DNA of 60,892 nt from a virus (lineage: Duplodnaviria > Heunggongvirae > Uroviricota > Caudoviricetes), in the IMG/VR virus record IMGVR_UViG_3300045988_133230; one strand, given 5' to 3'. Below are positions 34-45,334 of this stretch, piece by piece. The stretch's first letter is position 1; each line of letters starts with the position of its first letter. A model generated the notes under the pieces. The model searched no databases. It saw only the letters and a program-made list of their open reading frames with translations, and was not told where the DNA came from. The position numbers were made by a program, and so were the translations under genes.

Positions 34-333
34 GTGGACTGCCAGCCGATAGCGGCTGGTTTCAAGGGACTTTTACCACACGGTAAAAAGTCACGTCTCC
101 AGTGTGATGATGATGAAGGCATCATGATAGACGGTTGTGTGGCTCGGTTGCGAAAGTATAAACCAGAGGAATATGAGCTGATCATAGCTCACTTTGTTAT
201 TGGTATCTCATTACGCACTATTGCCAAGAAGAGAAGATGTTCAGATGGCACAATTAGGAAGGAATTGCAGACTGCCATGGGGTTTATCAGCGGTGTAATA
301 ATAACTATAAACCCCATTATGGTAGTTAATTAA
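34..333 (+). CDS. Q-type late antiterminator, C-terminal part (N-terminus unresolved)
   Basis: Translation parallels the C-terminal two-thirds of the Q protein at 43092-43475 (AAGFKGL, CxxC, CSDG motifs). In-frame TAA at 1-3 and GTG at 34, so upstream part is missing or frameshifted. Confidence 0.55.
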   Translation: MDCQPIAAGFKGLLPHGKKSRLQCDDDEGIMIDGCVARLRKYKPEEYELIIAHFVIGISLRTIAKKRRCSDGTIRKELQTAMGFISGVIITINPIMVVN

Positions 334-901
334 TGTGAATCCTATCACCAAGATAGTATAGTCCAAAAAATGTTGAAACAAGCATTTGCCATGTAAGGAA
401 TAAAAAGATAATGATATAGCACCAGTTTGCTATATCATTATTCAGTATGTTTATTAGTGGTGTGATAAAAGCGTTGAAAATCACTATGCATATGCTGAGG
501 GCAGTTAAAAATGAAAATAACATGCACAGAAATAATCTTCTGGTAAGTTTCTCTTGAGTGTCAACAATTCTACCATTTTCTTTTGTTCGTGTAATTTTAA
601 TAAAAGGAGTGCCATTAGTTCCTATCAGAGGGTAGTCAATTTGTTCTCTGTTGAAAGTGGCTATTGCTGCAAGAGCTGCTATATAAAAACCTGGCAGATT
701 TGATACAAATCCAGATATAGACTTAATAAAGCCGCCATCTTTTAGTAGGTCTGATGTAGGTATTTTAAATAAATAAAAGTAAAAAAAAGAAATCACAGCA
801 AGCCCGGCAGGTGCATAAAAATCGTATGCGCACTTACCACTAATTCCCTTAATGAAAAGGTAACCAAACGGTCTAAATAAATGTGAAAATATACTAATCA
901 T
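326..901 (-). CDS. hypothetical 191-aa integral membrane protein (about 4 predicted TM helices)
   Basis: Four hydrophobic stretches with a central charged loop; GAGG RBS 7 nt upstream of ATG, overlapping the stop of the 342-aa gene. Confidence 0.55.
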   Translation of the reverse strand: MISIFSHLFRPFGYLFIKGISGKCAYDFYAPAGLAVISFFYFYLFKIPTSDLLKDGGFIKSISGFVSNLPGFYIAALAAIATFNREQIDYPLIGTNGTPFIKITRTKENGRIVDTQEKLTRRLFLCMLFSFLTALSICIVIFNAFITPLINILNNDIANWCYIIIFLFLTWQMLVSTFFGLYYLGDRIHIN

Positions 902-908
902 ATTAGCC

Positions 909-1937
909 TCACATGACCTCGATAATCTTATTCACAAACTCCATGTTAATACTATCATAAGAATCCTTTAAGCGCGAAGAAAAACCATTTATTACACTCT
1001 TTTTGATAAATGTTTTTTCCAGCCCATCCAGCCTTACATTTGAAGTTTGAAGGTCAACTTGTCTTGTGAATCCTGTCTCTGGCTCTTTGAATTTTATTTT
1101 TATTAAGTCATAACCTCCATTTTTATCTTCTTTAAAGAAGTTTGAGACAGATTTTATCCATCCAAGGACATTGTTGGGGCCATGGTTTGGTACTAAGCGT
1201 AAAGTACTTTCTTTAGGAATAATAGCCGCGTTAACATCTGGCGCATTAATAGTTCTGTATTCATTCTTTACCAAAACGACATCAGAAAGTCCTTCTTTAT
1301 TTATTTTATTGAACAAATCTTCATCTAACTTTCCAGATATATCAAAGACTGGCTTGTATAATACTTTTATTTTTTTCTTTGTTAAACTTGATACTTCATT
1401 TGTTAAAGTGTTACATGAAAAGATATCTTCATTATCTTTGGCTACGTTAAAGAGAACTTTATTCAGGAAACCATTTATTTTTGCTGTGGAAACTCCTGGT
1501 ATTGGCATAAAACTCATGTCATACGTTCGCATATTTCCGTCTAGAGAAATAATCATATGAGAAGAAACTTCGTAACCTTCACCTTCCTCATGTTTTGGTG
1601 ATATTTCGGTGCGAACATCTGTATTAATGTTTTTTAATACAGTAGTGCTTCCATTTTTATCTACAGCATTAATTAAAAGACCAAGATGGCTGGGTTTTTT
1701 ATCGGCTCTGTTTGATAAGAATATTACATCTTGTAAAGTTAAAACTAAGTCTCCTTTTTCATAACTGTGCATCATTGCTTTACAATGTACTATTTTAGAA
1801 GCAAGTTCACGCATTGTTGGTACTGGGCAAACACAGTTCGATCTGATGCTATCATCAATTTTCTGTGTACGGTATTGTGTATCGATCGTAATAGTATGAT
1901 GAGTTATTACTCTACTGAATGCGTCCAGTGTAGCCAT
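909..1937 (-). CDS. hypothetical 342-aa soluble protein, first gene of cargo operon
   Basis: Long ORF in a visibly AT-rich block between Q and the late leader; no catalytic motif recognised; stop overlaps RBS of downstream gene. Confidence 0.6.
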   Translation of the reverse strand: MATLDAFSRVITHHTITIDTQYRTQKIDDSIRSNCVCPVPTMRELASKIVHCKAMMHSYEKGDLVLTLQDVIFLSNRADKKPSHLGLLINAVDKNGSTTVLKNINTDVRTEISPKHEEGEGYEVSSHMIISLDGNMRTYDMSFMPIPGVSTAKINGFLNKVLFNVAKDNEDIFSCNTLTNEVSSLTKKKIKVLYKPVFDISGKLDEDLFNKINKEGLSDVVLVKNEYRTINAPDVNAAIIPKESTLRLVPNHGPNNVLGWIKSVSNFFKEDKNGGYDLIKIKFKEPETGFTRQVDLQTSNVRLDGLEKTFIKKSVINGFSSRLKDSYDSINMEFVNKIIEVM

Positions 1938-21462: not shown

Positions 21463-22047
21463 ATGCATCGTATAGACACGAAAACCGCGCAGAAGGATAA
21501 GTTCGGCGCGGGTAAGAACGGTTTTACCCGTGGTAACCCCCAGACCGGCACACCTGCCACCGATCTGGATGATGACTACTTTGACATGTTGCAGGAGGAA
21601 CTTTGCAGTGTTGTGGAGGCATCCGGTGCCAGCCTGGAGAAGGGGCGGCATGACCAGCTGCTTACAGCGCTTCGTGCGCTGCTGTTAAGCCGCAAGAATC
21701 CGTTTGGCGATATCAAATCGGATGGCACGGTGAAAACGGCTCTCGAAAACCTTGGTTTGGGAGAAGGTGCTAACTGGGTTATGTTACCTGGAGGAATGAT
21801 AATTCAGCGTGTTTATCTTGGATTTCCTATTGGCACTAATGTAAGACATATAACTTTCCCCCGGTCGTTTACAACAACGAACTATTCCATCTCAATTAAC
21901 TGGAATGATATCGGTACTGTAACAACTGAAACACAATCACCAGCAAATGTGGCGGTTGTTCATCAAACAAAATCATTAACAGGGGCCAGCATCTGGCAGG
22001 CAGGTCCCGGGGGATTTAATGTGGACATTATAGCGGTGGGGTATTGA
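21463..22047 (+). CDS. tail fibre protein (constant N-terminus plus variable tip)
   Basis: 194 aa; contains the gix-like crossover site within ENLGLGEGA coding sequence. Confidence 0.7.
21740..21765. promoter_or_regulatory. candidate Hin/Gin-family crossover site (12-2-12)
   Basis: CTCTCGAAAACC-TT-GGTTTGGGAGAA; both half-sites fit the TTxTCxAAAACC pattern of gix/hix sites. Confidence 0.5.
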
Positions 22048-22048
22048 T

Positions 22049-22477
22049 ATGTACGTATGGAGCGCTAAAGCAAATGGCTTTTTCCCCATATCGGAGAAAG
22101 AAAAATTTGAGGCATCAGGTCTGTGGCCTGATGATGGTGTAATAGTCAGTGAGGAAGAACATAAAAAGTTATTTATGGATATTCCACCAGGAAAACAGAT
22201 TGGAACACTGAATGGAAAACCAGCACTGATAGATATTCCTCAGCCGACCAAAAAGGAATTAATAGCTATTGCTGAAGTTAAAAAATCCCAATTACGGGAA
22301 AAGGCTGACAGTGAAATATCCTGGCGTCAGGATGCTGTTGATGCTGATATCGCAACTGATGAAGAAGCTACAACTCTCACCCAATGGAAGAAATACCGTG
22401 TGCTGCTGATGCGTGTTGATACGTCAACAGCACCCGATATTGAATGGCCTACGCCTCCGGCAGTTCAGGCCAGATGA
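22049..22477 (+). CDS. tail fibre assembly protein
   Basis: 142 aa with C-terminal TSTAPDIEWP motif shared with the convergent copy. Confidence 0.7.
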   Translation: MYVWSAKANGFFPISEKEKFEASGLWPDDGVIVSEEEHKKLFMDIPPGKQIGTLNGKPALIDIPQPTKKELIAIAEVKKSQLREKADSEISWRQDAVDADIATDEEATTLTQWKKYRVLLMRVDTSTAPDIEWPTPPAVQAR

Positions 22478-23042
22478 CATCCGGCGCGGTGCTGGTATCT
22501 GTTGCCGTCACCGCGTCAATGTAATCCAGCACGGCGTTAAGTCGGGTTGTTTCTGCCTGAGTCAGTTTCCGTCCGGCCTGTAATTTCAGCTGAATCAGAC
22601 TAATGGAAGCCATTGCTGCATCAATCAGTGACTGGCGCTGTGCTTCTGCCGCGTCTACTGCGGCACTGTGTTGTGCCTCAGTGTCTGTCACCCATTTCTC
22701 ACCATCCCATTTATCGTATGGCGTTAACGGTGAAAGCGTGACATAACCGTCTTTGATGGCACCGATATAATCCACTGTAACAGCTGCACCATTTTCGATT
22801 GAGTAAACAGTCTCATTGCGATGGTCTTCCTCATGGCTCCATCCCTTACCTGTAAATACCGTCACTCTTCCCAGAATGTTTTCGCCCGGGTCAATACCAG
22901 TTGAACAGGCGGGCATACTTACGCCAGTATTAATATATTCATCAGACCAGCCCGTATACTCAGATGTTTCAGCATCATAATAAAAACAACGCATATCGCC
23001 CGGCACTGTAGCCAGCCCATTTTCATCAAAAACAGGTTTCAT
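22449..23042 (-). CDS. tail fibre assembly protein (alternative, inverted orientation)
   Basis: 197 aa, C-terminal TSTAPDVIWPELP; convergent with 22049-22477. Confidence 0.7.
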   Translation of the reverse strand: MKPVFDENGLATVPGDMRCFYYDAETSEYTGWSDEYINTGVSMPACSTGIDPGENILGRVTVFTGKGWSHEEDHRNETVYSIENGAAVTVDYIGAIKDGYVTLSPLTPYDKWDGEKWVTDTEAQHSAAVDAAEAQRQSLIDAAMASISLIQLKLQAGRKLTQAETTRLNAVLDYIDAVTATDTSTAPDVIWPELPEA

Positions 23043-23524
23043 TATTTAGCCCTCACCAGAAAGTTAAATGCAATATTTCGCGGTCTGACAGCAACAAAAT
23101 TCACACCATCACCCACAGAGTTACTGGTGAAATTAAATCGTGAAAATCCTGGCTGATTTCCGGCGATGCCATCATGAAAGTTAATTGCGTGTCCCGCACC
23201 TTCGCCTATATTCCCGGCAAACTGAGAAAAGTTTGTAGCTGCCTGCCAGCTTAATAATTCGCGACCACCATCTGCACCTCGCCCGTCATCCCAGACACGA
23301 ATGAAATCACCGCGTGCGTCAGGTAATGCCAACGCCGGAAACACTTTCGCCAGCACAGGGTAATCAGTGGCAGAAAATTTCGCCCCGTTGAACTTCAAAA
23401 ACACCATACTGGACCAGCTGTCGATTACAGTATTTGGCATTGCAGCGGACGCCCAGAAGAACGGAACGCCAATAGCTGGAGCACCTTCTCCCAAACTGCG
23501 ATGGCTCACTGCTGATATGTGCAA
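23042..23524 (-). CDS. alternative tail fibre C-terminal segment (promoterless variable tip)
   Basis: Begins ...SLGEGAP matching the junction residues of the plus-strand fibre; inverted 17-bp identity at 23480-23496. Confidence 0.6.
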   Translation of the reverse strand: MHISAVSHRSLGEGAPAIGVPFFWASAAMPNTVIDSWSSMVFLKFNGAKFSATDYPVLAKVFPALALPDARGDFIRVWDDGRGADGGRELLSWQAATNFSQFAGNIGEGAGHAINFHDGIAGNQPGFSRFNFTSNSVGDGVNFVAVRPRNIAFNFLVRAK

Positions 23525-23718
23525 TCGACGGGGAGTTCAGGATCAAGCGATATCGGACTCATCCTCAACACCACCTGATTAATTTGGAGAGCGGGAGAAG
23601 GGAGATGCTACCAGTAGATGATGACGGTTACGGTTCTGCTCCCGCGATATTCGGGGTGATTACTTACATCATTAATGATGCGAGGAACGCGGAGTTTGAT
23701 GATTGTCCGGTGATGTAA

Positions 23719-24387
23719 TCATATTGGCGTTATTAGTTCGGCGCCCTGATTTTTCACATTCCCGACGGCACGCGTTACGGCGTGCCATATAAATTTATCA
23801 GCCGGTACAACACCGTCGGCTGCAATTTCCGCTGCTTCTTTCCCTCCAACATCCTGCCTCATCCATTCACGCGCGGCTTCCGGTAGCAGTACCAGTGGTC
23901 GTCTGTCGTGAATATCAACCAGTCCTTTGTCAGCTGCAGCTGTAACTATCAGGAAACCTTCTGCTTCATCTCCACGTTCGAATGGTGTGCTGCCGATCGC
24001 CGCCATAAAAATCGGCTGACCGTCTGCCCGGTGAATAAAGTAGGGTTGTTTTTGGTCGCCTTCCTTTTTCCACTCATACCATCCATCAGCAAAGCAAATT
24101 GCGCGGCCATGCTGCCAGAGTGGTTTAAACATTCTGCTGGTGGCAGCAGTTTCAGACCGTGCATTAATGAGCGGCGGTTTATCCCACCAACCGGGGGCGT
24201 ATCCCCAGATAACTGGATCAAGATGCAACTGCTCATCACGTTCGCTCAGAAGCAGAACTTTTGTTCCTGGCGCTACGTTGAATCTTCCGATGGGTTCTGG
24301 ATCGTATGGAATATCGCGTTCTGATTCATCAGCGAGAAGGGCAAGATAATCTTCACGGGTCATTGACTGTGAAAAGCGTCCACACAT
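23719..24387 (-). CDS. SOS response-associated peptidase (SRAP/YedK family)
   Basis: 222 aa starting MCGRF with catalytic Cys2; family features recognisable by eye. Confidence 0.8.
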   Translation of the reverse strand: MCGRFSQSMTREDYLALLADESERDIPYDPEPIGRFNVAPGTKVLLLSERDEQLHLDPVIWGYAPGWWDKPPLINARSETAATSRMFKPLWQHGRAICFADGWYEWKKEGDQKQPYFIHRADGQPIFMAAIGSTPFERGDEAEGFLIVTAAADKGLVDIHDRRPLVLLPEAAREWMRQDVGGKEAAEIAADGVVPADKFIWHAVTRAVGNVKNQGAELITPI

Positions 24388-24586
24388 AGAAACCTCCAGC
24401 CGTATGTCAGACTGAAAGTATAGGGCAGTTAGAAAAAGTGGTGCACACCGTTAAAGATTTAAAAGGAGCATGTAAGGTAAATCGGAATGATGGTTTTGTG
24501 AATTGATGAATTCCGAAAGTGAAAAAGATACTTAATCATTGTGTGCTAGCGATACGGGGGCAACATTTGACGGGGTTTTTCCCCTG

Positions 24587-24708
24587 TAATTCCCCATTGC
24601 TTCCCCGTTCAGAAAACAGGCAAAAAAACCAGCCGTAACAGGCTGGTTCTTCGAGGATTTTTGGTCGGCACGAGAGGATTTGAACCTCCGCCCCCCGACA
24701 CCCCATAG
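24587..24708. repeat. 122-bp direct repeat copy 1 (tRNA 3' fragment plus terminator)
   Basis: About 97 percent identical to 25757-25879 by manual alignment. Confidence 0.85.
24662..24708 (-). other. tRNA-Pro-like 3' fragment (att-type remnant, not a complete gene)
   Basis: Reverse complement reads ...GGAGGTTCAAATCCTCTCGTGCCGACCA: T-arm, G72, A73 discriminator, CCA; no D-arm or 5' acceptor strand present. Confidence 0.65.
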
Positions 24709-24784
24709 TGTCGTGCTAATATTCTGATGGCCTATATGCGTCTACAGTAAGTTGATAGCATCATTCGTCGGTCGCTTCGTAGTC

Positions 24785-25600
24785 TCACATACGGATAAAA
24801 TTTTTTCTATTGATTTTGTCTCTATCAGAGCCATAAATGATGGTTGCAAAAAAACGACCTAATTCAAGATGGTGGAAGTGATTATCTTTTGCTTGAACTG
24901 TCATTGAGTCTAATATGTTATAGATGCATTCTATGATATGAATAACTAATAAAGTGCGATAACCAGCAAGCATTTCACTTCTTTTAAGTAAATAATTTAA
25001 ATCCCCTGCAGAGTTTATATGGTTTCTGTCTTCATCATAATATCCAAGCACATAGCATGGCAGTGTTTCACCATAGCTTCGGTATTGCTCGCATTTTTTA
25101 TCAATTATATTTTTTTGTCTTTTTGTTAATATTTTATCGTAAATGCTCTTATCGATTTCATTATACCATTGCTTCATGGGATCATTGTCGTTGTCATTAG
25201 TAATGAAATCAATATTACTATATCTTGATGAATTTGCAAAATTAGTTAACAACTCCATCACTCTGTAGTGAATTTCATTTAAGCCAGAGGGAGAATCAAC
25301 TCTCTCAATGACTAGGTTGAATAACTTGCTTAAGTTATGACCGTAATCTCTTAATTTTTTGCGTGATGTATATTTTCCATTTTTATTATAATCATCAAGC
25401 ATAAGGCAAAGTTTCATAAGCCTTTCTAATCCTAAACTGATGCCGGATAATGCTTGAAAATACAATCCTCTACTTGCAAAATTTGCTTTCCTTAGGGAAG
25501 TGAGCCCTATGCCTAATAATTGTCTTGAAAAGTCAACCTCATCAACAAATCTTCTGTATTTTTCATCCATAAAAACCTCAGTCAGCCAATTAATATTCAA
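24785..25600 (-). CDS. hypothetical 271-aa protein (cargo, possible abortive-infection type)
   Basis: AT-rich ORF lying between the two 122-bp direct repeats; no recognisable motif. Confidence 0.55.
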   Translation of the reverse strand: MNINWLTEVFMDEKYRRFVDEVDFSRQLLGIGLTSLRKANFASRGLYFQALSGISLGLERLMKLCLMLDDYNKNGKYTSRKKLRDYGHNLSKLFNLVIERVDSPSGLNEIHYRVMELLTNFANSSRYSNIDFITNDNDNDPMKQWYNEIDKSIYDKILTKRQKNIIDKKCEQYRSYGETLPCYVLGYYDEDRNHINSAGDLNYLLKRSEMLAGYRTLLVIHIIECIYNILDSMTVQAKDNHFHHLELGRFFATIIYGSDRDKINRKNFIRM

Positions 25601-25756
25601 GAATGATTTCTATAAAGAACTAATCTAGTTAAATCATCTGATGTAATTAGTATTACAATACCATCAGACGACATTGAAGCAGTATTGTGCCTTATCTACC
25701 CTATGTACGTCCATTGATAAAAATCTGCGCTTTTCGCAGTGGGGTCAATCGTAAGC

Positions 25757-25879
25757 TAATTTCCCCATTGCTTCCCCGTTCAGAAAACAGGCAAAAAAAA
25801 CCAGCCGTAACAGGCTGGTTCTTCGAGGATTTTTGGTCAGCACGAGAGGATTTGAACCTCCGCCCCCGACACCCCATAG
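25757..25879. repeat. 122-bp direct repeat copy 2, includes tRNA-Pro-like 3' fragment 25834-25879
   Basis: See copy 1; four point or length differences. Confidence 0.85.
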
Positions 25880-26073
25880 CGGTGATCTACCTTCTCATCA
25901 AGGGTAACCATGTGCCAGAAGCAGCCCTTGCGCACATTGGATGGGTATCAAATAATGAAGTAGGTCAACTTTATTAAATAAAATTGTGTTGGTTCAGATG
26001 ATCGAATGGGAATGAATAGTTTATTACTTTTGGTGACCGCAAGCGCGATCACCTTCGATTTGGTGGCAATTAC

Positions 26074-27042
26074 CTAGAATGATGCACAATCTTTAAGCTC
26101 TTTTTCTAGTTGTTCAACCAAGTCACAGCATTTTTTGATAACATCTTTAACTGACTCTGAATCTAACTTATGAAAATTACCATTTTTTGTTTTACCTGCT
26201 CGATGAACTAAGTCATGCCTAATTAACACGCTTTTATAAACTTCTGTGAAAACAGGGAATTTAATACCAAAGGTATCTCGATACATGCCACTTACTTTTG
26301 GCAGATTATGATAAAGAACACTCTTCATAGACTCTATCGCTTGAGACTCTATTTGTTCATGCCTTATAAATAATTCAGAAAGTAAGAATTTTTCTGTATT
26401 GTAATCTTTGAAGGTTTCAACAAAATTTCTCAAATTAGTTTGGCTACCATGAATTAGGGAAATAAATCTGTCACATAAATATGTTTCCAAGGAAGTTATT
26501 GTATTGGCATATAGCATATACGACATTTGTATTTGTAAAGTGCTATCAATTTTTAACTGAGCATCATTTAGTTTTATGGCGTTCTGCATACTATTTTGGA
26601 ATGTCATATAGACATCTCGTTCAGATAGCGTTCGATCATCAGAGTACTGCATATCAATAACATCTAGAATGCGCTGTTCAATTAATGAAGGTCTATTCAA
26701 CTGTAATATATCTATAGTCGCATGTCCTCGCTCAGTTAAACCTTCTAAATATCCATTTTTATTTTGTTTTATATGTTCTGAAAAACTTTCATTTAAAGGA
26801 TTTAGAAGTAATGGTTTGCCATTTTCATCGAGAGGAAACTGATCTTTTTTAATCATGCTACATGCCTTACAAGCGATGAGCAGGTTGTCTGTAGCATCTT
26901 GGAAGTCAGTATACTTTGATTTTGGGAAAAAACGATCAACATCCGCCATCAATGGTTCATAAAGTTTAGTGCCACAGTAAGCACATTGATGCTTAAACTT
27001 CTCCCATAGTTCAAGTTTAAACGTTTTATAATTCTTATTCAT
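26074..27042 (-). CDS. HNH-domain protein, 322 aa (N-terminal HNH-like nuclease, C-terminal unknown domain)
   Basis: CAYCG...DVDRFFPKSKY...NLLIACKACS resembles a Zn-finger HNH core; AT-rich; located where e14 carries mcrA. Confidence 0.6.
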   Translation of the reverse strand: MNKNYKTFKLELWEKFKHQCAYCGTKLYEPLMADVDRFFPKSKYTDFQDATDNLLIACKACSMIKKDQFPLDENGKPLLLNPLNESFSEHIKQNKNGYLEGLTERGHATIDILQLNRPSLIEQRILDVIDMQYSDDRTLSERDVYMTFQNSMQNAIKLNDAQLKIDSTLQIQMSYMLYANTITSLETYLCDRFISLIHGSQTNLRNFVETFKDYNTEKFLLSELFIRHEQIESQAIESMKSVLYHNLPKVSGMYRDTFGIKFPVFTEVYKSVLIRHDLVHRAGKTKNGNFHKLDSESVKDVIKKCCDLVEQLEKELKDCASF

Positions 27043-27486
27043 TGAATAGTTCCTTTATATTCTTGACTTGATTGTTTGTTTGCCAATTTAAGCCAAAGAC
27101 ACACGACTTTAATTGGGCTTGAATCATAGTTATATGTAATCTATTAAGCAAACACTTTTCATTAATAGCATGAGATAACGCTCAATTCTTTATTTTCCGG
27201 GAGTGTGTAACTTCATATCCACCTCTCACTCACAGCGTACGTTATTGGCGAAAAATTTAGTTAAGCCATTGATAGTTTGTGAAAACACGCATGATTTAAA
27301 ATCCCTTTGCCGTGAAGGGGCTGATAGGTACAGGCACTTGTTTTTGCCCTCTAAAACGGTTATCAAAACCAAAAAACATACATTGATAATCAATAGGTTA
27401 GGGGAAAGATAAAAGCCAGTTGATTTACAATAAAATTATAGGATTATTTTTATTTATCATGCGGTTGTATATGAACCATCTAACTA

Positions 27487-27651
27487 CTGCTGCGCCATAT
27501 GGGCTGGACTGAAGCCGCAGACCTGATTGTTAAAGGTATGGAAGGCGCGATCAACGCGAAAACCGTAACCTATGACTTCGAACGTCTGATGGAAGGCGCT
27601 AAACTGCTGAAATGTTCAGAGTTTGGTGACGCGATCATCAAGAACATGTAA
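27487..27651 (+). pseudogene. icd: icd 3' fragment (duplicated attachment segment, icdC-like)
   Basis: Encodes ...[53 protein letters not shown], the C-terminus of isocitrate dehydrogenase; upstream sequence is unrelated and AT-rich. Confidence 0.85.
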
Positions 27652-27717
27652 TCTCTACATGTGTTAAATATTGAAACGGGCGTATAACACGCCCGTTGTT
27701 TTATGATGATGTAAAAT

Positions 27718-27753
27718 CTTCCCCAAAACTTTCCCCAAAACCCTTCCCCAAAA
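27718..27753. repeat. three tandem TTCCCCAAAAC repeats (candidate integrase arm-type sites)
   Basis: Direct repeats between icd fragment/terminator hairpin (27674-27700) and int stop. Confidence 0.5.
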
Positions 27754-27764
27754 CTGGCTATTTT

Positions 27765-28907
27765 CTATGCTGTTTTGATATCTACGATAATCCAGTCTTT
27801 ACCACGATCATCATTGTATCGGTCGGTCATTTTTCTGGATTTATGGCCTAACAACTTTTGCGTATCCAGACCCTGTTCCCGATATAACCGTTCTGACAGA
27901 GATCGCTGCTCATGAAATGTGGGCGCAGTTCCTTGCTCCCATTTTATGCCACATTTTTCCCTGGCCTTTTTAAAAGCCGTTGTCAGAGTATTCGCAGAAA
28001 CCTGGTCTCCTCTGTTTGCTTGAGAGGTTGTGTGACGGTAATGGACCAGATATTTACTAACAACAGCATCCCTGCACTGAGATATAACTTCACGAAGGGT
28101 AATATTCAGAGCATCGCATTTCAGGTTAAGCGGAATAGCAAGTTTTGAACCGGTTTTTTCCTGAGTAATGTGCAACATGTCGTCCCAGATATCAGAGAAT
28201 TTCAAATTGCAGATATCGCCTAAACGTTGTCCAGTGACAAGAGCAAGTAGCATCCCACATTTTAAATAGGGCTGCCGTCTGCTTACGCTGTCAAATATTG
28301 CCTGCCATTCGGGCAGTGATAATCTTTGGCGGTTTACTCGATTTCGCGGTTGTTTTGTTGCCTGCGCTGGGTTAAATCCTGGCGGAACATGTCCTGCGTG
28401 TTGTGCTTCTTTGAAGACGTCGATTAACACCATTCTCACGACTTGCGCCATCCTGTTATGACCTTCAGCCTTTACAGCATCAATTATTTCGGCAATATCA
28501 AGTGCGGTAATATCCTTGAGGTGTTGCATTCCACAATGCTCACGGAAAAGACGAATGGGTTTGCCTTTTTGCCGATAGGAGTTGGGTCTTAGTTCATTAT
28601 GTTGCAGCCTGTCCTCCTGGATAGAAATATATTTATCAAGCCATTCTGTCACCGTAATGTCTGAGCGCCTGCCTTTCATTCTTTCCAGACGCTCATTGAC
28701 GCTTAATATTTGTCGGGTACGTTGTTCAGCAATAATGATATTTGCTTCAGTAGCAACTTGTTTTGCTTCATTCTCATCAGTTCCTAAGCTATGAAAACGA
28801 CCGGATAGTGGATGTTTGTATTGCCAATATACCTTTCCGGTTCGCTTATCTAATTTGCAATATAAATTGGGTATAGAGATTTTGTGAGATCGGGGTCTAG
28901 CAGCCAT
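27765..28907 (-). CDS. int: tyrosine integrase (e14 IntE-like, icd-targeting)
   Basis: 380 aa with C-terminal R...HxxR...Y catalytic region (LLGHKSRKMTDRY); adjacent to icd fragment. Confidence 0.9.
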   Translation of the reverse strand: MAARPRSHKISIPNLYCKLDKRTGKVYWQYKHPLSGRFHSLGTDENEAKQVATEANIIIAEQRTRQILSVNERLERMKGRRSDITVTEWLDKYISIQEDRLQHNELRPNSYRQKGKPIRLFREHCGMQHLKDITALDIAEIIDAVKAEGHNRMAQVVRMVLIDVFKEAQHAGHVPPGFNPAQATKQPRNRVNRQRLSLPEWQAIFDSVSRRQPYLKCGMLLALVTGQRLGDICNLKFSDIWDDMLHITQEKTGSKLAIPLNLKCDALNITLREVISQCRDAVVSKYLVHYRHTTSQANRGDQVSANTLTTAFKKAREKCGIKWEQGTAPTFHEQRSLSERLYREQGLDTQKLLGHKSRKMTDRYNDDRGKDWIIVDIKTA

Positions 28908-29133
28908 CAGCGATTATCCGTTGGAGTTTTGGGTTTGCGTTTATTGGGAGTTGCGGTTCTGCAAGCGTTCCTACAAAACGGGAATTTCGGTCAATCATCC
29001 AGTAGCGACCAACTTTTATAGCGGGTGGGGCCATCATTTTCCCTTGCGCGTATTTTTTCAGAACTCGCTCACTTGGTGCTAAGTCCCCAAATTCTTCTTT
29101 AGCCCAGTCCTGTAAAGTGATTAGTCGAGACAT
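28897..29133 (-). CDS. xis: excisionase
   Basis: 78 aa, overlaps int start; MSRLITLQDW... Xis-like winged helix. Confidence 0.7.
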   Translation of the reverse strand: MSRLITLQDWAKEEFGDLAPSERVLKKYAQGKMMAPPAIKVGRYWMIDRNSRFVGTLAEPQLPINANPKLQRIIADGC

Positions 29134-38234: not shown

Positions 38235-39761
38235 ATGAAAAAAGCCATAGCATATATGCGATTTTCATCACCAGGTCAGATGTCTGGTGATTCATTAAAC
38301 CGCCAGAGAAGGCTTATTACTGAATGGCTAAAGGTAAATAGTGATTATTACCTTGATACCGTAACGTATGAAGATTTGGGGTTAAGCGCATTCAATGGAA
38401 AGCATGCACAATCAGGAGCTTTTTCGGAATTTTTAGATGCTATAGAACATGGTTACATATTGCCAGGGACTACATTGTTAGTTGAAAGTCTGGACAGACT
38501 TTCAAGAGAAAAAGTCGGTGAAGCGATTGAGCGTCTGAAATTGATTTTGAATCACGGTATTGATGTTATAACTCTTTGCGATAATACAGTCTATAATATA
38601 GACTCATTGAATGAGCCATATTCATTAATAAAAGCCATACTTATAGCACAAAGGGCAAATGAAGAAAGCGAGATAAAGTCAAGTCGGGTTAAATTATCAT
38701 GGAAGAAAAAACGGCAGGATGCACTGGAATCAGGCACGATTATGACGGCGTCTTGTCCGAGATGGCTCTCATTGGATGACAAAAGAACAGCTTTTATTCC
38801 AGACCCCGACAGGGTGAAAACGATTGAGCTAATTTTTAAACTCAGGATGGAAAGGCGATCATTGAATGCAATAGCTAAGTATTTAAATGATCATGCTGTA
38901 AAAAATTTTTCAGGAAAAGAAAGTGCATGGGGGCCTTCTGTAATTGAAAAATTATTAGCGAATAAAGCTCTGATAGGTATATGCGTACCTTCATATCGTG
39001 CAAGAGGGAAAGGGATAAGTGAAATCGCTGGCTATTATCCCAGAGTCATATCAGATGATTTGTTTTACGCTGTACAGGAAATTCGGTTGGCACCTTTTGG
39101 TATTAGCAATAGTAGCAAGAATCCTATGCTAATAAATCTACTTCGAACAGTTATGAAGTGTGAGGCTTGTGGTAATACCATGATTGTTCATGCGGTATCT
39201 GGACGTTTGCATGGCTATTATGTTTGTCCGATGAGAAGATTACATCGATGTGACAGGCCATCAATAAAAAGAGATTTGGTTGATTATAATATCATTAATG
39301 AATTGCTTTTTAATTGTAGCAAAATTCAACCAGTTGAAAACAAGAAAGATGCTAATGAAACTTTAGAGTTAAAAATTATTGAGCTTCAGATGAAAATTAA
39401 TAATTTAATCGTTGCATTGTCTGTCGCGCCTGAAGTTACCGCTATAGCAGAGAAAATAAGACTATTAGATAAGGAATTACGAAGGGCTTCGGTATCATTA
39501 AAAACTTTGAAGAGTAAAGGGGTGAGTTCACTTGGTGATTTTCATGCTATTGATTTAACTAGTAAAAATGGGCGAGAGCTATGTCGTACACTTGCCTATA
39601 AAATATTCGAAAAAATTATAATTAATACAGATAATAAAACCTGTGATATCTATTTTATGAATGGCATTGTTTTTAAACACTATCCTTTAATGAAAGTAAT
39701 ATCCGCCCAGCAGGCGATAAGCACTCTTAAATATATGGTTGATGGTGAGATTTATTTTTGA
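38235..39761 (+). CDS. ybcK: large serine recombinase (YbcK-like)
   Basis: Resolvase N-terminal catalytic region (YMRFSSPGQ...SLDRLSR), Cys-rich zinc ribbon; AT-rich. Confidence 0.75.
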   Translation: MKKAIAYMRFSSPGQMSGDSLNRQRRLITEWLKVNSDYYLDTVTYEDLGLSAFNGKHAQSGAFSEFLDAIEHGYILPGTTLLVESLDRLSREKVGEAIERLKLILNHGIDVITLCDNTVYNIDSLNEPYSLIKAILIAQRANEESEIKSSRVKLSWKKKRQDALESGTIMTASCPRWLSLDDKRTAFIPDPDRVKTIELIFKLRMERRSLNAIAKYLNDHAVKNFSGKESAWGPSVIEKLLANKALIGICVPSYRARGKGISEIAGYYPRVISDDLFYAVQEIRLAPFGISNSSKNPMLINLLRTVMKCEACGNTMIVHAVSGRLHGYYVCPMRRLHRCDRPSIKRDLVDYNIINELLFNCSKIQPVENKKDANETLELKIIELQMKINNLIVALSVAPEVTAIAEKIRLLDKELRRASVSLKTLKSKGVSSLGDFHAIDLTSKNGRELCRTLAYKIFEKIIINTDNKTCDIYFMNGIVFKHYPLMKVISAQQAISTLKYMVDGEIYF

Positions 39762-40110
39762 GTAATAATCACTTTTTCAACCGTGCTATGGTATGAAAGT
39801 AAAGTAACTACTATGATATTAACTATCTTGAACGAAGCGCCCTGAGCTATAGTTTTACTATAGGCACTGCCACTGGATGTTGGCATTCTCGCTCTAGTAG
39901 CTCAACAATACCCAATCACAAAACAATTCACTGATAACAAACTTTGTGCACGTGCTTAGTTATGGCGAACAGGTGATGTTAACCTCCTGCCAGAATGCCA
40001 CTCCACTTCATTAAGTATCTGAGCACCGAGAGGCTGGTCACGCCCCCATTAAAAATAATTTCTTTTGAATCGAGTGAAATAGGTTAGCCCGCATAAGTGC
40101 GGGCTGCTTT

Positions 40111-41154
40111 TTACAGGTCAGCGTTTGTTTTTTGTTGTTGGGTAGCGGTTTTTATGGGGGTTCCCAGGTTTTTAGTAAACCACTCAACAACTCTGTTTAT
40201 AATAATTGGCTGATACCATGTATTATCACCATGCTCAGCCCCTTCTACCAGAACGTACTCAGCGTTATCGCCGTTCTTCTTCAACATCCTGAATAGTTTG
40301 GCGCTTTGCTCAGGTGAAACCAGAGTGTCTTTGCTACCATGCATAATAAGAAATGGGGGTTTTACTCCTTTCATATGTCCGATTGGACTGGCGTTTAGCG
40401 CTTTTTCTTTTGACGCTGTGATGGGGGCTCCCGCAAAATTTCTGAATGCAGGGCCATTGATCATTAAGGCTTCGGTTACGGCAGGAGAGCGATGAACCTC
40501 CTGCACTGATTCAGGGAACCCCTCGCCAATATTCAACAAGTCAGAAATCCCATAAAGTGTGGCAACTGCCTGAACATCTGAGGATTGCTGAAGAAAGTCA
40601 CCTTTATCAAAGGTTTTGTCACCATTTGTAGTTCCCATCATCTGAGCAAGCCATCCACCGGCAGAGTCACCCAGAACTCCGATTCTTTGAGGATCAATCC
40701 CATAATTGCTGGCATGCTCTCTCAGGTAACGTATTGCAGCTTTTCCATCCTCAACTGGTGCTGGAAATGTATCAGGAATTGTTCTGTATTCTACAGCGGC
40801 CACAACAAAACCAGCTTCTGCCAGAGCCATTCTCATTTCAATAAATTTGTCATGTTCAGAAGACATGAATCCGCCGCCGGGATAATAAATAATGGCTGGT
40901 TTTAAATCATTTGTTCGCGGGACAAGAACTGACATGTGAAGCTGTCTGACAGAACGAGTTCCTTTTATCTGGGAATAAACAACATCACCAATGAGATCGA
41001 CCTGGTTTCTGGTCGGTGAAACACTAATGATATCTGCACCCGGGGTGTAACCAGGAAGATTAGTCTGGACAGGTGTTGCACAACTCCCGACCGACATGGC
41101 CATTGACATACCATACAATAGTGTTGCAGATGATAATATCTTGTTAATTTTCAT
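40111..41154 (-). CDS. alpha/beta-hydrolase esterase/lipase, predicted lipoprotein
   Basis: Signal peptide ending VGSC, oxyanion motif YPGGGF, nucleophile elbow GDSAGG. Confidence 0.7.
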   Translation of the reverse strand: MKINKILSSATLLYGMSMAMSVGSCATPVQTNLPGYTPGADIISVSPTRNQVDLIGDVVYSQIKGTRSVRQLHMSVLVPRTNDLKPAIIYYPGGGFMSSEHDKFIEMRMALAEAGFVVAAVEYRTIPDTFPAPVEDGKAAIRYLREHASNYGIDPQRIGVLGDSAGGWLAQMMGTTNGDKTFDKGDFLQQSSDVQAVATLYGISDLLNIGEGFPESVQEVHRSPAVTEALMINGPAFRNFAGAPITASKEKALNASPIGHMKGVKPPFLIMHGSKDTLVSPEQSAKLFRMLKKNGDNAEYVLVEGAEHGDNTWYQPIIINRVVEWFTKNLGTPIKTATQQQKTNADL

Positions 41155-41601
41155 GTTTTACATGCCTTGACTTATCGGATGAAATTCTCTTACTGAATTT
41201 AACGGCAGTTTAATAGCCGTACAACTCGTGGTAGCCAGGGAAATATCCCAGTCGTGGTTAAGGTTGTACTTGACGGCTATTATTTCAACAATGCTTAAAG
41301 TGAGAGCTTAAGGTTATGCGTATGTTTTACAGTCCGAGTAGATTCTGACCAATAGCTTCTTTGTATAATTCTGTCAGAAATAAATCTTGGCTTGCATGAA
41401 GTTTGAGACCTTATCTTGTTTGATTATGAATAATCAATTCGCCATAATTGTATCACCGGAGCCTGAACAACTCCGGTGACTTCTGCGCTAAACGGGGACG
41501 TTTATGCGCACACACAATCCAAACTCTCTTCTCCCTTCACAGATGCAGAAATGCACCTGCGTTTTTTTGCATCCAGCGTCTGACCTCTGTGGAGGTGAAG
41601 C

Positions 41602-42057
41602 GTGAACCTACCACAAGATGGCATCAAACTGCATCGCGGTAACTTCATCGCTATCGGCCAGCAGATCCAGCCTTATCTGGAGAACGGAAAATGCTTTCGC
41701 ATGGTGCTTAAACCGTGGCGTGAGAAACGCAGTCTTTCCCAGAATGCACTCAGCCACATGTGGTACAGCGAAATCAGTGAATACCTCATCAGCAGGGGGA
41801 AATCGTTCGCTACCGCAGCATGGGTAAAAGATGCTCTCAAACACACATACCTCGGTTATGAAACCAAGGACCTGGTTGATGTCGTAACCGGCGAAATCAC
41901 TACTATCCAGTCGTTACGCCATACCTCCGATCTCGATACCGGAGAGATGTATGTCTTCCTGTGTAAGGTTGAAGCCTGGGCGGTGAATATTGGCTGCCAC
42001 CTGACTATTCCGCAGAGCTGCGAGTTCCAGCTGCTGCGCGACAAGCCGGAGGCGTAA
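41602..42057 (+). CDS. ybcN: YbcN-like nin-region protein
   Basis: 151 aa in nin region upstream of ninE. Confidence 0.6.
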
Positions 42058-42228
42058 TGGCTACACCGCTTATTCGTGTCATGAACGGACACATCTACAG
42101 AGTACCAAATCGTCGTAAGCGTAAGCCTGAGCTGAAACCATCCGAAATACCAACACTGCTCGGATATACCGCCAGCCTGGTTGATAAAAAATGGTTGCGA
42201 CTGGCAGCAAGGAGGAATCATGGCTGAT
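42058..42228 (+). CDS. ninE: NinE
   Basis: 56-aa [27 protein letters not shown]... found by me (below ORF-track size cutoff). Confidence 0.6.
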
Positions 42229-42510
42229 TTGAGAAAAGCAGCACGTGGTCGGGAATGCCAGGTAAGAATCCCTGGCGTATGTAATGGCAATCCTGAAACG
42301 TCAGTACTGGCACATATCCGGCTGGCTGGATTGTGCGGCACCGGTATTAAACCGCCAGACCTTATTGCCACCATTGCATGTTCTGACTGTCACGACGAGA
42401 TCGACCGTCGCACGCATTTTGTTGACGCTGGATATGCAAAAGAATGCGCGCTGGAAGGTATGGCGAGAACGCAGGTTATCTGGCTGAAAGAGGGGGTAAT
42501 TAAGGCGTGA
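42220..42510 (+). CDS. ybcO: YbcO-like Cys-rich nin-region protein
   Basis: 96 aa from ATG 42220; Cys/His cluster. Confidence 0.65.
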
Positions 42511-42869
42511 ATACTTACCATATCACACTACCCTGGCCGCCGAGCAATAATCGCTATTACCGCCATAATCGTGGGCGCACGCACGTCAGCGCAGAGGGGC
42601 AAGCATACCGCGATAATGTCGCCCGAATCATTAAAAACGCAATGCTGGATATCGGCCTGGCTATTCCTGTGAAAATCAGCATTGAGTGCCACATGCCGGA
42701 TCGCCGTCGCCGTGACCTTGATAATCTGCAAAAGGCCGCTTTTGACGCACTCACCAAAGCAGGTTTCTGGCTGGATGATGCTCAGGTCGTTGATTACCGC
42801 GTTGTGAAGATGCCCGTTACCAAAGGTGGGAAGCTGGAGCTGACCATCACCGAAATGGGGAATGAATGA
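42507..42869 (+). CDS. rusA: Holliday junction resolvase RusA
   Basis: 120 aa [18 protein letters not shown]... Confidence 0.9.
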
Positions 42870-43006
42870 TATTTGAGTTTTATATGGCAGAACGTCTTCG
42901 CCACCGCTGGATGCGCCTGCGCTTATATCGTTTTCCTGGTTCTGTTTTGGCCGATTACCGGATACTGAAGAATTACGCCAAAACACTGAAAGGAGCATGT
43001 GTATGA
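42866..43006 (+). CDS. ylcG: YlcG-like small protein
   Basis: 46-aa ORF overlapping rusA stop (ATGA). Confidence 0.45.
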
Positions 43007-43091
43007 AGTCAGAGATAACAATCGACTAATACTGTTTTGTTGATTTTTGCTTGTAATTGGCGTTCTGGCCTAATTTTTGTGGAGTAAGTTG

Positions 43092-43475
43092 ATGCGTGAT
43101 GTTCAGATGGTTCTTGAGCGTTGGGGGGCGTGGGCAGCTAATAATCATGAAGATGTGACCTGGTCGTCCATTGCTGCCGGTTTTAAGGGATTAATTCCTT
43201 CAAAAGTAAAATCTCGCCCGCAATGTTGTGACGATGACGCGATGATCATTTGCGGGTGCATGGCCCGTCTGAAAAAGAACAACAGCGATTTACACGATTT
43301 ATTAGTAGATTATTATGTATGTGGTATGACATTCATGTCACTGGCAAGTAAGCATTGCTGCTCGGATGGTTATATCGGGAAAAGGTTACAGAAGGCTGAG
43401 GGCATAATTGAAGGGATGTTAATGGCATTAGATATCCGGTTAGATATGGATATCGTTGCTAATAATTCTAATTGA
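43092..43475 (+). CDS. Q: late antiterminator Q (QuuD-like)
   Basis: 127 aa from ATG 43092 with GGAG RBS; Cys-rich zinc-binding region. Confidence 0.85.
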
Positions 43476-43612
43476 TATGCAATTGTTTACTAAAAGTTAT
43501 TAAAAATGGGGCGTGGAAACGCCCCCAAAATAAAGGGTAATATATAACAGAAGGTTTATATAGTAAGAAGCAAGGTAGTGCTTCTAAAGGAAGTGGCTTG
43601 AGGGCTCCACTT

Positions 43613-43655
43613 ATATGTTGCGGAGGCAAAGCCTCCCGCAACATATCTTTTTCGT
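43613..43655 (+). terminator. intrinsic terminator downstream of Q
   Basis: TGTTGCGGAGGC-AAA-GCCTCCCGCAACA hairpin followed by TATCTTTTTCG. Confidence 0.6.
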
Positions 43656-43663
43656 AAGTCAGA

Positions 43664-44746
43664 TTAGAACTGATAAACCAGACCTACAGCGACGATGTCG
43701 TCGGTATCAATACCAGCTGTTTTGGTAAACTTACTATCGTCAATTAAGTTGATTTTGTAATCAACAAAAGTGGACATGTTTTTATTAAAGTAGTAAGTAG
43801 CACCGACATCGACATACTTGACTAAGTCTCGGTCACCATGAACACCAAGGTCTTTACCTTTTGACTGAAGGTAAGCAACAGATGGGCGCAGACCGAAGTC
43901 AAACTGATATTGTGCTACTGCTTCAAAGTTTTGTGCTTTGTTTGCAATATGGTTATTACCAAAAACGGTCATATTCTGAGTTTCAGAATATGTGGTAGCC
44001 AGATAGATATTGTTCGCATCATATTTCAGGCCTGCAGCCCATACTTCCGCATTTTTGCCGGAGGCATTGAATTTGCTCTTACCATAGGCGACCTGACCGT
44101 CAGTGCGATCTGATTTAGCATAGGTTGCACCCACGCCGAATCCTTCATACTCATAAGTAGTGGAGAAACCGAAACCATCACCATTGGCTTCAGTTACGTC
44201 AGTGCGGTCATTTTTACCCTGATACTGAGCAGCAAAGTTCAGGCCATCGACCAGACCAAAGAAGTCGTTGTTACGATAAGTTGCAACACCAGTAGTGCGA
44301 CCAGTCATGAACACATCTGTTTGGGTCCAGGTATCACCACCGAATTCTGGCAGAACGTCAGTCCACGCACCGATGTCGTATGCTACACCGTAGTTACGGC
44401 CGTAATCGATTGAGCCGTAATCACCAAATTTCAGGCCTGCAAATGCAAGACGGGTTTTGTCTTTGGAAGAACCTTGAGATTCAGCACGGTTGCCTTTGAA
44501 TTCATATTCCCACTGACCGAAACCAGTCAGTTGATCGTTGATTTGGGTTTCACCTTTGAAGCCAAGACGGGCATAAGTAGTATCACCATCATCTGCATCA
44601 TTAGAGGAGAAGTAGTGCTTGGCATTAACTTTCCCGTATAGATCCAGCTTGTTACTGTCTTTATTATAAATTTCAGCTGCCTGAGCAGACATCGCCATCA
44701 GTACTGATGCAGCTACAGCAGAAATTGCCACTGTTAATTTTTTCAT
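43664..44746 (-). CDS. outer-membrane porin (OmpC/NmpC/Lc family)
   Basis: Signal peptide [23 protein letters not shown], beta-barrel porin sequence ending ...GLVYQF; start at ATG 44746. Confidence 0.85.
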
Positions 44747-45117
44747 TGTACGCCCTTTTTTTGAACTATTATTAAAAAATGATGTCACTGCGCGATAAAT
44801 ATTCATCTAATCAATGTGATTATTTCAAGATGTAAGTTTTAGTTTCTCATTTAATTTGTGAAGTAGATCTCTATTTTTATCTGAACCTTTTCTATCTAAT
44901 CCTATTCATGGCTCTTGTTTGAACGAAAATAAATCTATTAGCTAATTTATATTAATGGCACTTATTTATAAGCGCTCTATAATTCTTTAGCTTAATTTAA
45001 ACAAACTAAAAATAACATCGGAAATTATTCATTGGTTATTTGTTGAAGTTTTCTTATGTATTTGTGGTGGTGTTTTGAACACTCGGTGGCATTCTCACAA
45101 ATATCATTTAGTAGTTT

Positions 45118-45206
45118 ACGTACGTAAAAAATTGGTTATGCTGTTAAGAGTGGTTACTTCGTCACACAGCTTAAACCCGCCGTCGAGCGGGTTTTTCCAT
45201 TTTTTG
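45118..45206 (+). promoter_or_regulatory. late-operon leader (pR'/qut-like) with tR' hairpin 45173-45206
   Basis: Near-identical to 1996-2076; hairpin followed by T-run. Confidence 0.65.
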
Positions 45207-45334
45207 AGTCTCGATATTAGCTGATAACCCAATACCTGAGTTATTCACTGACTCCGAATCTGTTACGTTTCTGCCTTTATTGCGATACGTAGTATCCCCT
45301 TAATTTACACCCGCTTTGTCTGCGAGGTGGGGTT

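Follow-up and report, generated by a model that had tools for sequence, protein, structure and literature searches.

Why does a prophage integrated at the icd gene carry, close to its right end, two copies of the 3' part of a tRNA-Pro gene with one AT-rich gene between them? The question is raised by a viral DNA stretch of 60,892 nt (IMG/VR record IMGVR_UViG_3300045988_133230), which is called the window here at its full length. The answer depends on where the repeats come from, on what the gene between them is, and on whether the unit moves.

The window has one strong internal repeat, found both by repeat finding and by self-BLAST. Positions 24590-24708 pair with 25761-25879 at 97.5% identity over 120 columns (E = 3.6e-50), and the two direct repeats flanking an AT-rich, one-ORF segment that had been described from the sequence alone are confirmed. 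The DNA between them is 1.05 kb long, with 31-34% GC against about 50% in the phage body. Repeat 1 covers 24587..24708 and repeat 2 covers 25757..25879, both on the minus strand. A single substitution (GCCGACCA vs GCTGACCA) and two homopolymer indels of 1 nt separate them. On the minus strand, each repeat begins with tRNA-Pro(GGG) from the anticodon loop through the CCA end, which amounts to 44-45 nt (24706-24662 in repeat 1, with 45 nt, and 25877-25834 in repeat 2). The tRNA part of both repeats equals K-12 proL except at one variable-loop position, and that of repeat 2 lacks one G and has a C replaced by T in the acceptor stem. An intrinsic terminator follows at 24652-24623 in repeat 1, and the same terminator lies at about 25824-25795 in repeat 2. 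It is composed of a GC-rich hairpin, AACCAGCC-TGTTAC-GGCTGGTT, and a run of 7-8 T. Folding of repeat 1 exceeds that of shuffled sequence (z = -3.8). Both repeats then contain two GGGGAA motifs resembling arm-type sites, after which repeat 2 diverges.

Neither repeat completes a functional tRNA gene, and both are internal to the icd prophage. ARAGORN detected no tRNA gene in the window, and an Rfam scan of positions 22000-29000 (E <= 1) returned neither a tRNA nor any other family at the repeats. A blastn alignment of repeat 2 and its flank with the whole tRNA-Pro gene has 81% identity. The 5' flank of each core was compared with the tRNA 5' half in a shuffle test, which gave p = 0.17 for repeat 2, p = 0.37 for repeat 1, and p = 0.0135 for the corresponding core of strain S88 described below. 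A decayed tRNA 5' half beside each core was dropped as a candidate, as the flank similarity is not significant. The proL match, ARAGORN and the shuffle test together agree with the earlier view of the repeats as att-type remnants of tRNA-Pro with a terminator and no tRNA 5' half.

Repeats 1 and 2 are each other's closest relatives, the next nearest arm being 94-95% identical. Compared with the nearest other arms, they have six derived states in common and therefore have a single source or have been homogenised. Gene conversion, instead of a recent common source, could account for their near-identity. In two carrier genomes, a fourth place matching the repeat is reported but was not located.

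The intact tRNA-Pro locus expected for the repeat is proL, but the sequence downstream of the tRNA part is of phage type and not native. When the repeat is aligned with the unoccupied proL locus of K-12, the similarity drops quickly past the tRNA. Strains LP50-1, 100181 and UTAK-5 have an e14-like prophage directly at proL, and the post-tRNA sequence there is 94-95% identical to the repeat. In these strains and at repeat 1 alike, the arm leads within about 200 nt to an SRAP (YedK-like) gene and then to the tail-fibre region. This colinearity identifies repeat 1 and its left flank as the P' arm of a proL-integrating phage. The rest of the arm (24388..24586, minus strand) contains a third GGGGAA and is colinear with the proL-integrated relatives up to the SRAP gene (23719..24387, minus strand), which is conserved across these phages as the final gene ahead of the P' arm. 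In phage Flotzy, the same core and P' arm directly adjoin a 396-aa integrase, which shares 77% identity with the one encoded at the distal end of the proL prophage of strain 100181. The proL core and P' arm of the repeat match the attP of phages that use proL, namely Flotzy and the prophages of the three strains.

The P' arm comprises three tandem GGGGAA-type repeats at a spacing of about 11 bp. The triplet is kept in Flotzy, Gifsy-2, S88 and repeat 1, and repeat 2 retains two of the three. By the lambda paradigm, these are probably integrase arm-binding sites. Judged by its sequence, the repeat is the phage-side att arm of e14-like proL phages, and not the bacterial sequence downstream of proL. 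The suggestion that the repeats had been captured into the prophage terminus is not upheld, as the proL-type arm is native to the phage lineage and repeat 1 is colinear with SRAP. A literature search gave no relevant result on proL as an integration site of coliphages.

The present address of the prophage is icd, as the sequence-only reading had proposed. The complete prophage of strain C1 has the order icd, a hypothetical gene, intE, xisE, early genes, late genes, tail and pin, and continues through SRAP, the 261-aa cargo ORF (ORF261), an HNH gene and an icd 3' fragment into the chromosome. The right end in the window is the same, and the layout of strain C1 and the icd 3' fragment both bear out the integration site. 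The icd-type att arm (27269-27498) and the icd 3' fragment (27499-27651) occupy 27269..27651 on the plus strand and form the real right end of the first prophage. About 212 nt before the icd fragment are common to an otherwise different, unrelated icd prophage; this defines the icd-type arm and delimits a lineage-specific cargo block of about 24587-27268. The integrase and excisionase of a second prophage follow directly after the icd fragment in the window, and this strain therefore has tandem lysogens at icd. What varies is the part of the phage backbone left of the unit. In the window, the pin-DinI-UmuD segment is missing and the SRAP gene is intact; the eight complete carrier genomes have the pin-DinI-UmuD genes and an IS421 inserted in SRAP.

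The cargo block contains a second gene at 26074..27042 (minus strand), which encodes a PtuB-like HNH nuclease with a HEPN-like C-terminal half. It always accompanies the gene between the repeats, and no relatedness was found between the HNH/HEPN-like protein and the HEPN-fold protein encoded there. The spacer between the HNH gene and the repeat 2 core, here called Py (25880..26073, minus strand), is weakly similar to the equivalent flank in S88.

No integrase fitting the repeats accompanies them. A tblastn search with two proL-type integrases matched the icd-type integrase alone, at 25-29% identity, and the window has no proL-type integrase or integrase remnant. Chromosomal proL is unoccupied in one carrier strain, Ecol_545, where the order is yejM, tRNA-Pro, yejO. 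The integrase search and the empty locus indicate that the proL-type att copies have no cognate recombinase in cis, nor at proL in Ecol_545.

Internal att cores of the same type are found independently in other elements. E. coli S88 and many B2 strains have an e14-like prophage with an internal proL-type core and P' arm. The core is followed by GIY-YIG and PD-(D/E)XK nuclease genes and then by a 46-nt ssrA core, the whole array being anchored at ssrA next to a P2-like prophage. Gifsy-2 of Salmonella has the order truncated SRAP, P' arm, proL-type core, gtgE, msgA and prophage end, and its gtgE is recognised by the Pfam GtgE model (E = 3e-110). A tRNA fragment beside gtgE is not mentioned in two open papers. 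The proL phage of strain 100181 carries two small cargo genes on the tRNA strand, the same orientation as in the window; they separate the integrase from the att core, and one of them is RelA/SpoT-like. The layouts of S88, Gifsy-2 and strain 100181 indicate that cargo beside the att core is normal in this phage group. The internal cores are most simply read as the result of an exchange of the integration module for one of the icd, ssrA or another type, which left the old att site and its cargo behind. Tandem arrays at proL also occur. In UTAK-5, yejM and proL are followed by a satellite that carries an integrase of its own, and then by a truncated core with P' arm, SRAP and the phage.

The gene between the repeats (24785..25570, minus strand) encodes a stand-alone HEPN-fold protein. 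A single ORF of 271 aa, read from TTG 25600, had been reported there. The single ORF stands, but a product of 261 aa from ATG 25570 is more likely, because a GAGG ribosome-binding site precedes this ATG and because the RefSeq annotation and the length of all homologs agree with it. The protein is an up-down helical bundle of the HEPN fold, and the earlier guess of a HEPN/Abi-like protein is thus correct at the level of the fold. Among 53 diverse family members, E11, G22, G47, R50, F111, R116, Y117 and W135 are invariant, and E49, K53, H78 and N119 are nearly so. The canonical Rx4-6H motif is absent. The HEPN model PF05168 gives E = 0.17 and 12.5 bits with the window protein, against a gathering threshold of 22 bits, and matches 9 of 23 family members (best E = 1.6e-5). 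The protein has no significant match in Pfam, PADLOC, PHROGs or NCBIfam. A sequence-profile search of the PDB returned nothing, and Foldseek gave no significant match in PDB or BFVD. The close family comprises 26 clusters from Enterobacterales, Aeromonas and Pasteurellaceae. An exhaustive profile search yielded 1,132 cluster representatives of about 260-280 aa, and ten sampled members of this wider family have no Pfam or PADLOC match. The cargo gene thus belongs to a sizeable, uncurated HEPN-fold family, with more than 1,100 cluster representatives that lack a Pfam or PADLOC model.

Homologs with 77-81% protein identity are found at P2-like, P4-like, island and Xenorhabdus loci. They are located in the S-V slot of a P2-like Klebsiella prophage, in the ogr-to-end slot of a P2-like Proteus prophage, in P4-like satellites, in a CP4-type island adjoining an AAA_21 ATPase gene, and at a Xenorhabdus locus near HicAB. 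The fetched flanks of these homologs contain no proL core. No conserved partner gene was found, as the neighbours in the five contexts are mutually unrelated and absent from the window. DNA homology between the window and the homologs in other contexts (76-78%) is limited to a portable module at 24783..25647 (minus strand), which comprises the ORF and about 45-75 nt upstream. The unrelated neighbours, the lack of proL cores and the limits of this homology show that the cargo gene is a stand-alone portable gene. On either side of the module are spacers known from this arrangement only. Px (24709..24784, minus strand) is 76 nt long, extends from the cargo stop codon to the repeat 1 core and has no GGGGAA. 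A 109-nt spacer (25648..25756, minus strand) separates repeat 2 from the module and includes a small hairpin and T-run at 25739-25725 (minus strand).

The gene has the features of a moron, namely its low GC content, a terminator downstream, and absence from related proL prophages. No promoter was convincingly identified for it. The P2 S-V slot of S88 contains an AIPR abortive-infection gene, and slots of this kind are known as reservoirs of anti-phage genes (PMC9122126). The HEPN-fold protein is plausibly an anti-phage or toxin-type effector. As it recurs in phage and satellite slots, its gene is a reasonable candidate for a single-gene anti-phage system.

The unit is invariant wherever it occurs. 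Among 5,426 complete E. coli genomes, 8 have the HEPN-fold and HNH genes, and wherever one of the two is present the other accompanies it in an unchanged order. The arrangement recurs in ten additional contigs, in three from IMG/VR and in one metagenome contig, which gives 22 or more independent records that agree. No presence/absence polymorphism of the 1.2-kb unit, the comparison proposed earlier, was seen. An empty site, defined as a full P' arm, one core and the HNH-side flank, has no match in IMG/VR and the JGI metagenomes, and none was found in the complete E. coli genomes. The patterns of Px, Py and the 109-nt spacer occur nowhere outside the same arrangement. Species-representative genomes contain a single distant Gallibacterium locus and therefore have no comparative power. 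The unit is probably a fixed, immobile scar of earlier integrations and not an active mobile cassette.

The duplication of the proL att site is best explained, with a probability of about 0.6, as the remnant of a tandem integration followed by deletion in a phage that switched to icd. The scar of tandem tRNA-targeting islands named by the sequence-only reading is accordingly the best-supported origin. Each repeat consists of the 45-nt proL core and the first 76 nt of the phage P' arm, a stretch that includes the terminator of the arm and two of the three GGGGAA motifs. Under this explanation, the prophage would descend from the proL-integrating e14-like group, and it would since have acquired the icd arm with the e14-type integrase and excisionase. 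Because the icd-type module is now carried, the proL att site appears as an internal fossil, with the HNH cargo between it and the working att site. In a first step, recombination at the att core by means of a proL-type integrase would have brought in another proL-targeting element, or a near-identical phage as a tandem lysogen. In a second step, a deletion would have extended from the 76th nucleotide of the P' arm of this newcomer to about 110 nt upstream of its att-adjacent cargo gene. The first 76 nt of that arm, the HEPN gene, Px and a core would remain. The repeat copies could then serve as terminators of the cargo upstream of them, repeat 2 for the HNH gene and repeat 1 for the HEPN gene.

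The boundaries of the repeats bear on this scheme. Their identity starts at the anticodon loop, which is the start of attP/attB identity in all relatives and is the boundary predicted by site-specific recombination. The identity ends inside the P' arm, past the second GGGGAA, at a point that resembles the endpoint of a deletion or the limit of homology. No larger element between the cores was found, nor a proL phage with the cargo gene beside its att site. As such intermediates were not seen, tandem integration and deletion is a reconstruction. The GGGGAA-containing P-arm motifs common to Flotzy and the strain 100181 phage are missing from Px and Py, and neither repeat therefore looks like a complete attP.

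The main rival dispenses with the integrase. Two related phages that had the 122-nt att arm in common but different att-adjacent cargo would have been joined unequally, by homologous or illegitimate recombination. The genomes of lambdoid phages are highly mosaic, a near-identical stretch of 122 nt suffices for exchange of the RecA or Red type, and the second prophage in the window has RecT/YqaJ-type recombination genes. The 3' boundary of the repeat, which lies within the P' arm and not at an att boundary, also fits such an exchange. The 5' boundary does not, because in every relative it falls where the att core begins, which random unequal exchange does not predict. This origin is possible, but clearly less probable than integrase-driven duplication. 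The small integrative cassette of the sequence-only reading is improbable to a much greater degree. It would be a 1.17-kb circle of the gene and one att site that re-inserts at proL-type cores, with an integrase supplied in trans by a co-resident phage or satellite. Both ends are indeed att cores with part of the P' arm, the boundary of the repeat is at the core, and proL-targeting phages and satellites that integrate at this arm circulate in E. coli. Against it, neither an empty site nor a circle nor another location turned up in the collections searched, the gene's homologs move without repeats, neither core is flanked by P-arm motifs, and the cores are mutated relative to the tRNA. The missing proL-type integrase in the window and the unoccupied proL in the carrier strain count against it as well.

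The repeat may have been kept and copied for its present role as a portable 3' module, in which a tRNA-like T-arm and a strong terminator would end and stabilise the cargo transcripts. Each copy is directly downstream of a same-strand cargo gene, the same element follows gtgE in Gifsy-2, the hairpin is strong, and repeat 1 folds better than shuffled sequence. This reading would be compatible with either origin discussed before it. It is unlikely, since no Rfam RNA family is found here and since the att origin fully explains the conservation of the tRNA part. It is also doubtful that the retained proL-type core is a working landing pad, an attB mimic for proL-targeting satellites and phages. 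If that were true, decayed insertions would load defence or virulence genes beside the prophage end, which would be a general integrase-driven route of moron acquisition and would account for the layouts of the icd phage, the S88 ssrA phage and Gifsy-2 with gtgE.

Tandem integration followed by deletion remains the preferred origin of the pair. The locus shows a temperate phage that has changed its chromosomal address and kept its old attachment site, and it shows cargo genes accumulating between the old and the new attachment sites. The fossil proL site is a useful landmark for cargo slots of this phage group, because it adjoins the Salmonella virulence gene gtgE and the nuclease genes of ExPEC strains.

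The cargo protein is comparable to AbiV, HepT/HepN toxins and the HEPN domain of Csm6. It differs from them in the lack of Rx4-6H and of an antitoxin or partner gene, in an extra helical region of about 130 residues, and in having no curated model match. Integron gene cassettes are similar in that a single promoter-poor gene is located between recombination sites. In contrast, there is no attC structure and no integron integrase here, the sites are tRNA-derived phage att copies, and homologs of the gene travel without them. The gene also resembles the cargo genes of P2 and P4 slots. It is AT-rich and stand-alone, with its own upstream region and a terminator, and its homologs are found in slots of P2-like prophages and P4-like satellites. 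The slots concerned are P2 S-V, P2 ogr-to-end and the lambdoid att-adjacent position, and not the published gpA-gpQ hotspot.

The right end of Gifsy-2 resembles the locus in its truncated SRAP gene, P' arm, proL-type core, same-strand cargo and true prophage end. It differs in having a single att copy, the virulence protease GtgE as cargo, and another integration site. The e14 element of E. coli K-12 has the same icd integration site and layout. From icd it continues with the integrase and excisionase genes, the phage body, the tail fibre genes, a gene for an HNH-type nuclease and the icd 3' fragment; mcrA holds the position of the HNH gene here, next to the duplicated icd 3' end. The HNH protein of the window is PtuB-like with a HEPN-like C-terminus, and not McrA. 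The e14 element is not known to have proL-type att copies.

Duplications of tRNA-derived att sites, including tandem arrays, are a well-known class that marks the boundaries of integrative elements, such as phages, satellites and islands at tRNA or tmRNA genes (PMC7192596). The repeats described here are like them in that they are direct repeats of the tRNA 3' part from the anticodon loop and mark element boundaries; one such site can take up several stacked elements, as the proL array of UTAK-5 shows. They differ in that neither copy is on a functional tRNA gene, that no integrase is located between or beside them, and that the pair lies inside a prophage at the protein-coding icd gene. The locus does not overturn current understanding. 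It is distinctive as a repeat pair in an icd prophage, without a cognate integrase, that encloses an element reduced to one gene.

The repeat unit, in which two proL-type att copies of about 120 nt (24587-24708 and 25757-25879) bracket the HEPN-fold cargo gene (24785-25570, minus strand), is constant while the phage backbone around it differs. When compared to two related loci (L001 and L012), the window has no pinE-DinI-UmuD' segment at 22400-24400, and its gene for SRAP, a YedK-like protein, is intact. The eight complete genomes with the repeat unit carry the pinE-DinI-UmuD' segment, and their SRAP gene is interrupted by an IS421 insertion. A tail-fibre assembly gene of the window contains, at 22245-22428 (plus strand), a match to Rfam IS009 of 47.8 bits (E = 7.6e-9), which is below the gathering score of 117. 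Two of the carrier genomes, NZ_CP018976.1 and NZ_CP010116.1, have four repeat-matching places by BLAST. Three of these are the two repeat copies and the native proL, and the fourth could be a further prophage that carries a fossil arm of proL type.

The e14-like prophage 1 ends with an icd 3' fragment (from 27499), and a second lambdoid prophage occupies the remainder of the window. The integrase (27765-28907) and excisionase of the second prophage start within about 115 nt of this fragment, so that icd in the strain of the window holds two lysogens in tandem. Elsewhere among the carriers, iraM or IS200C comes after this icd fragment in place of the second prophage. Both prophages of the window have in common a stretch of about 215 nt, 74% identical (1997-2210 and 45119-45329), which lies just upstream of the lysis and late genes and is probably a late-promoter or Q-utilisation region.

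Two AT-rich, function-unassigned ORFs on the minus strand of the window (326-1937) separate the antiterminator-Q region from the lysis genes; they encode 342 aa (phrog_9879) and a membrane-like product of 191 aa (phrog_8257). In relatives, this position holds TIR and caspase-like genes (strain 100181, L011 20326-21703) or an ATP-binding protein (L012), and it probably serves as a further slot for cargo or defence genes. The cargo of the second prophage (38235-44806) comprises a large serine recombinase of 508 aa (38235-39761), an esterase of the BD-FAE type (40111-41154), and a porin carried by the phage (43664-44806).

At the real proL site, E. coli UTAK-5 has a satellite-like element of about 11 kb between the tRNA and an e14-like phage, with an integrase, a primase, SSB, a capsid-protease fusion, and a small terminase. 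At the junction with the phage arm, the tRNA is reduced to roughly its final 20 nt; judged from this junction, the satellite seems to use a shorter att core than the e14-like phage. The proL-integrating phage of strain 100181 has att-adjacent cargo (L011 32079-33206) that encodes one protein of 118 aa and another of 256 aa, the latter RelA/SpoT-like (Pfam E = 6e-6). The two might act as a toxSAS-type toxin or defence pair.

The proL-type core also occurs at other positions. In Gifsy-2 (L032 4372-6037), the att core, terminator, and P' arm (the phage-side att arm) lie directly downstream of the virulence gene gtgE on the same strand, and a truncated SRAP gene adjoins them. No mention of a proL-type core beside gtgE was found in the open papers examined. 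E. coli S88 has an e14-like prophage at ssrA, in tandem with a P2-like prophage and with an internal proL-type core. GIY-YIG and PD-(D/E)XK nuclease genes are located between this core and a 46-nt ssrA core (L006 6001-9036). The S88-type junction is also found in many B2/ExPEC genomes, including UTI89, APEC O1, and NU14.

Beside the repeat unit, prophage 1 has a gene for a 322-aa HNH protein (26074-27042, minus strand), which is found only together with the HEPN-fold gene, in 8 of 5,426 complete E. coli genomes. The N-terminus resembles the PtuB HNH nuclease (PADLOC PtuB, E = 1e-23), and the C-terminal half has a weak resemblance to RiboL-PSP-type HEPN. The gene is solitary, with no PtuA partner, and its slot is the one that mcrA fills in e14.
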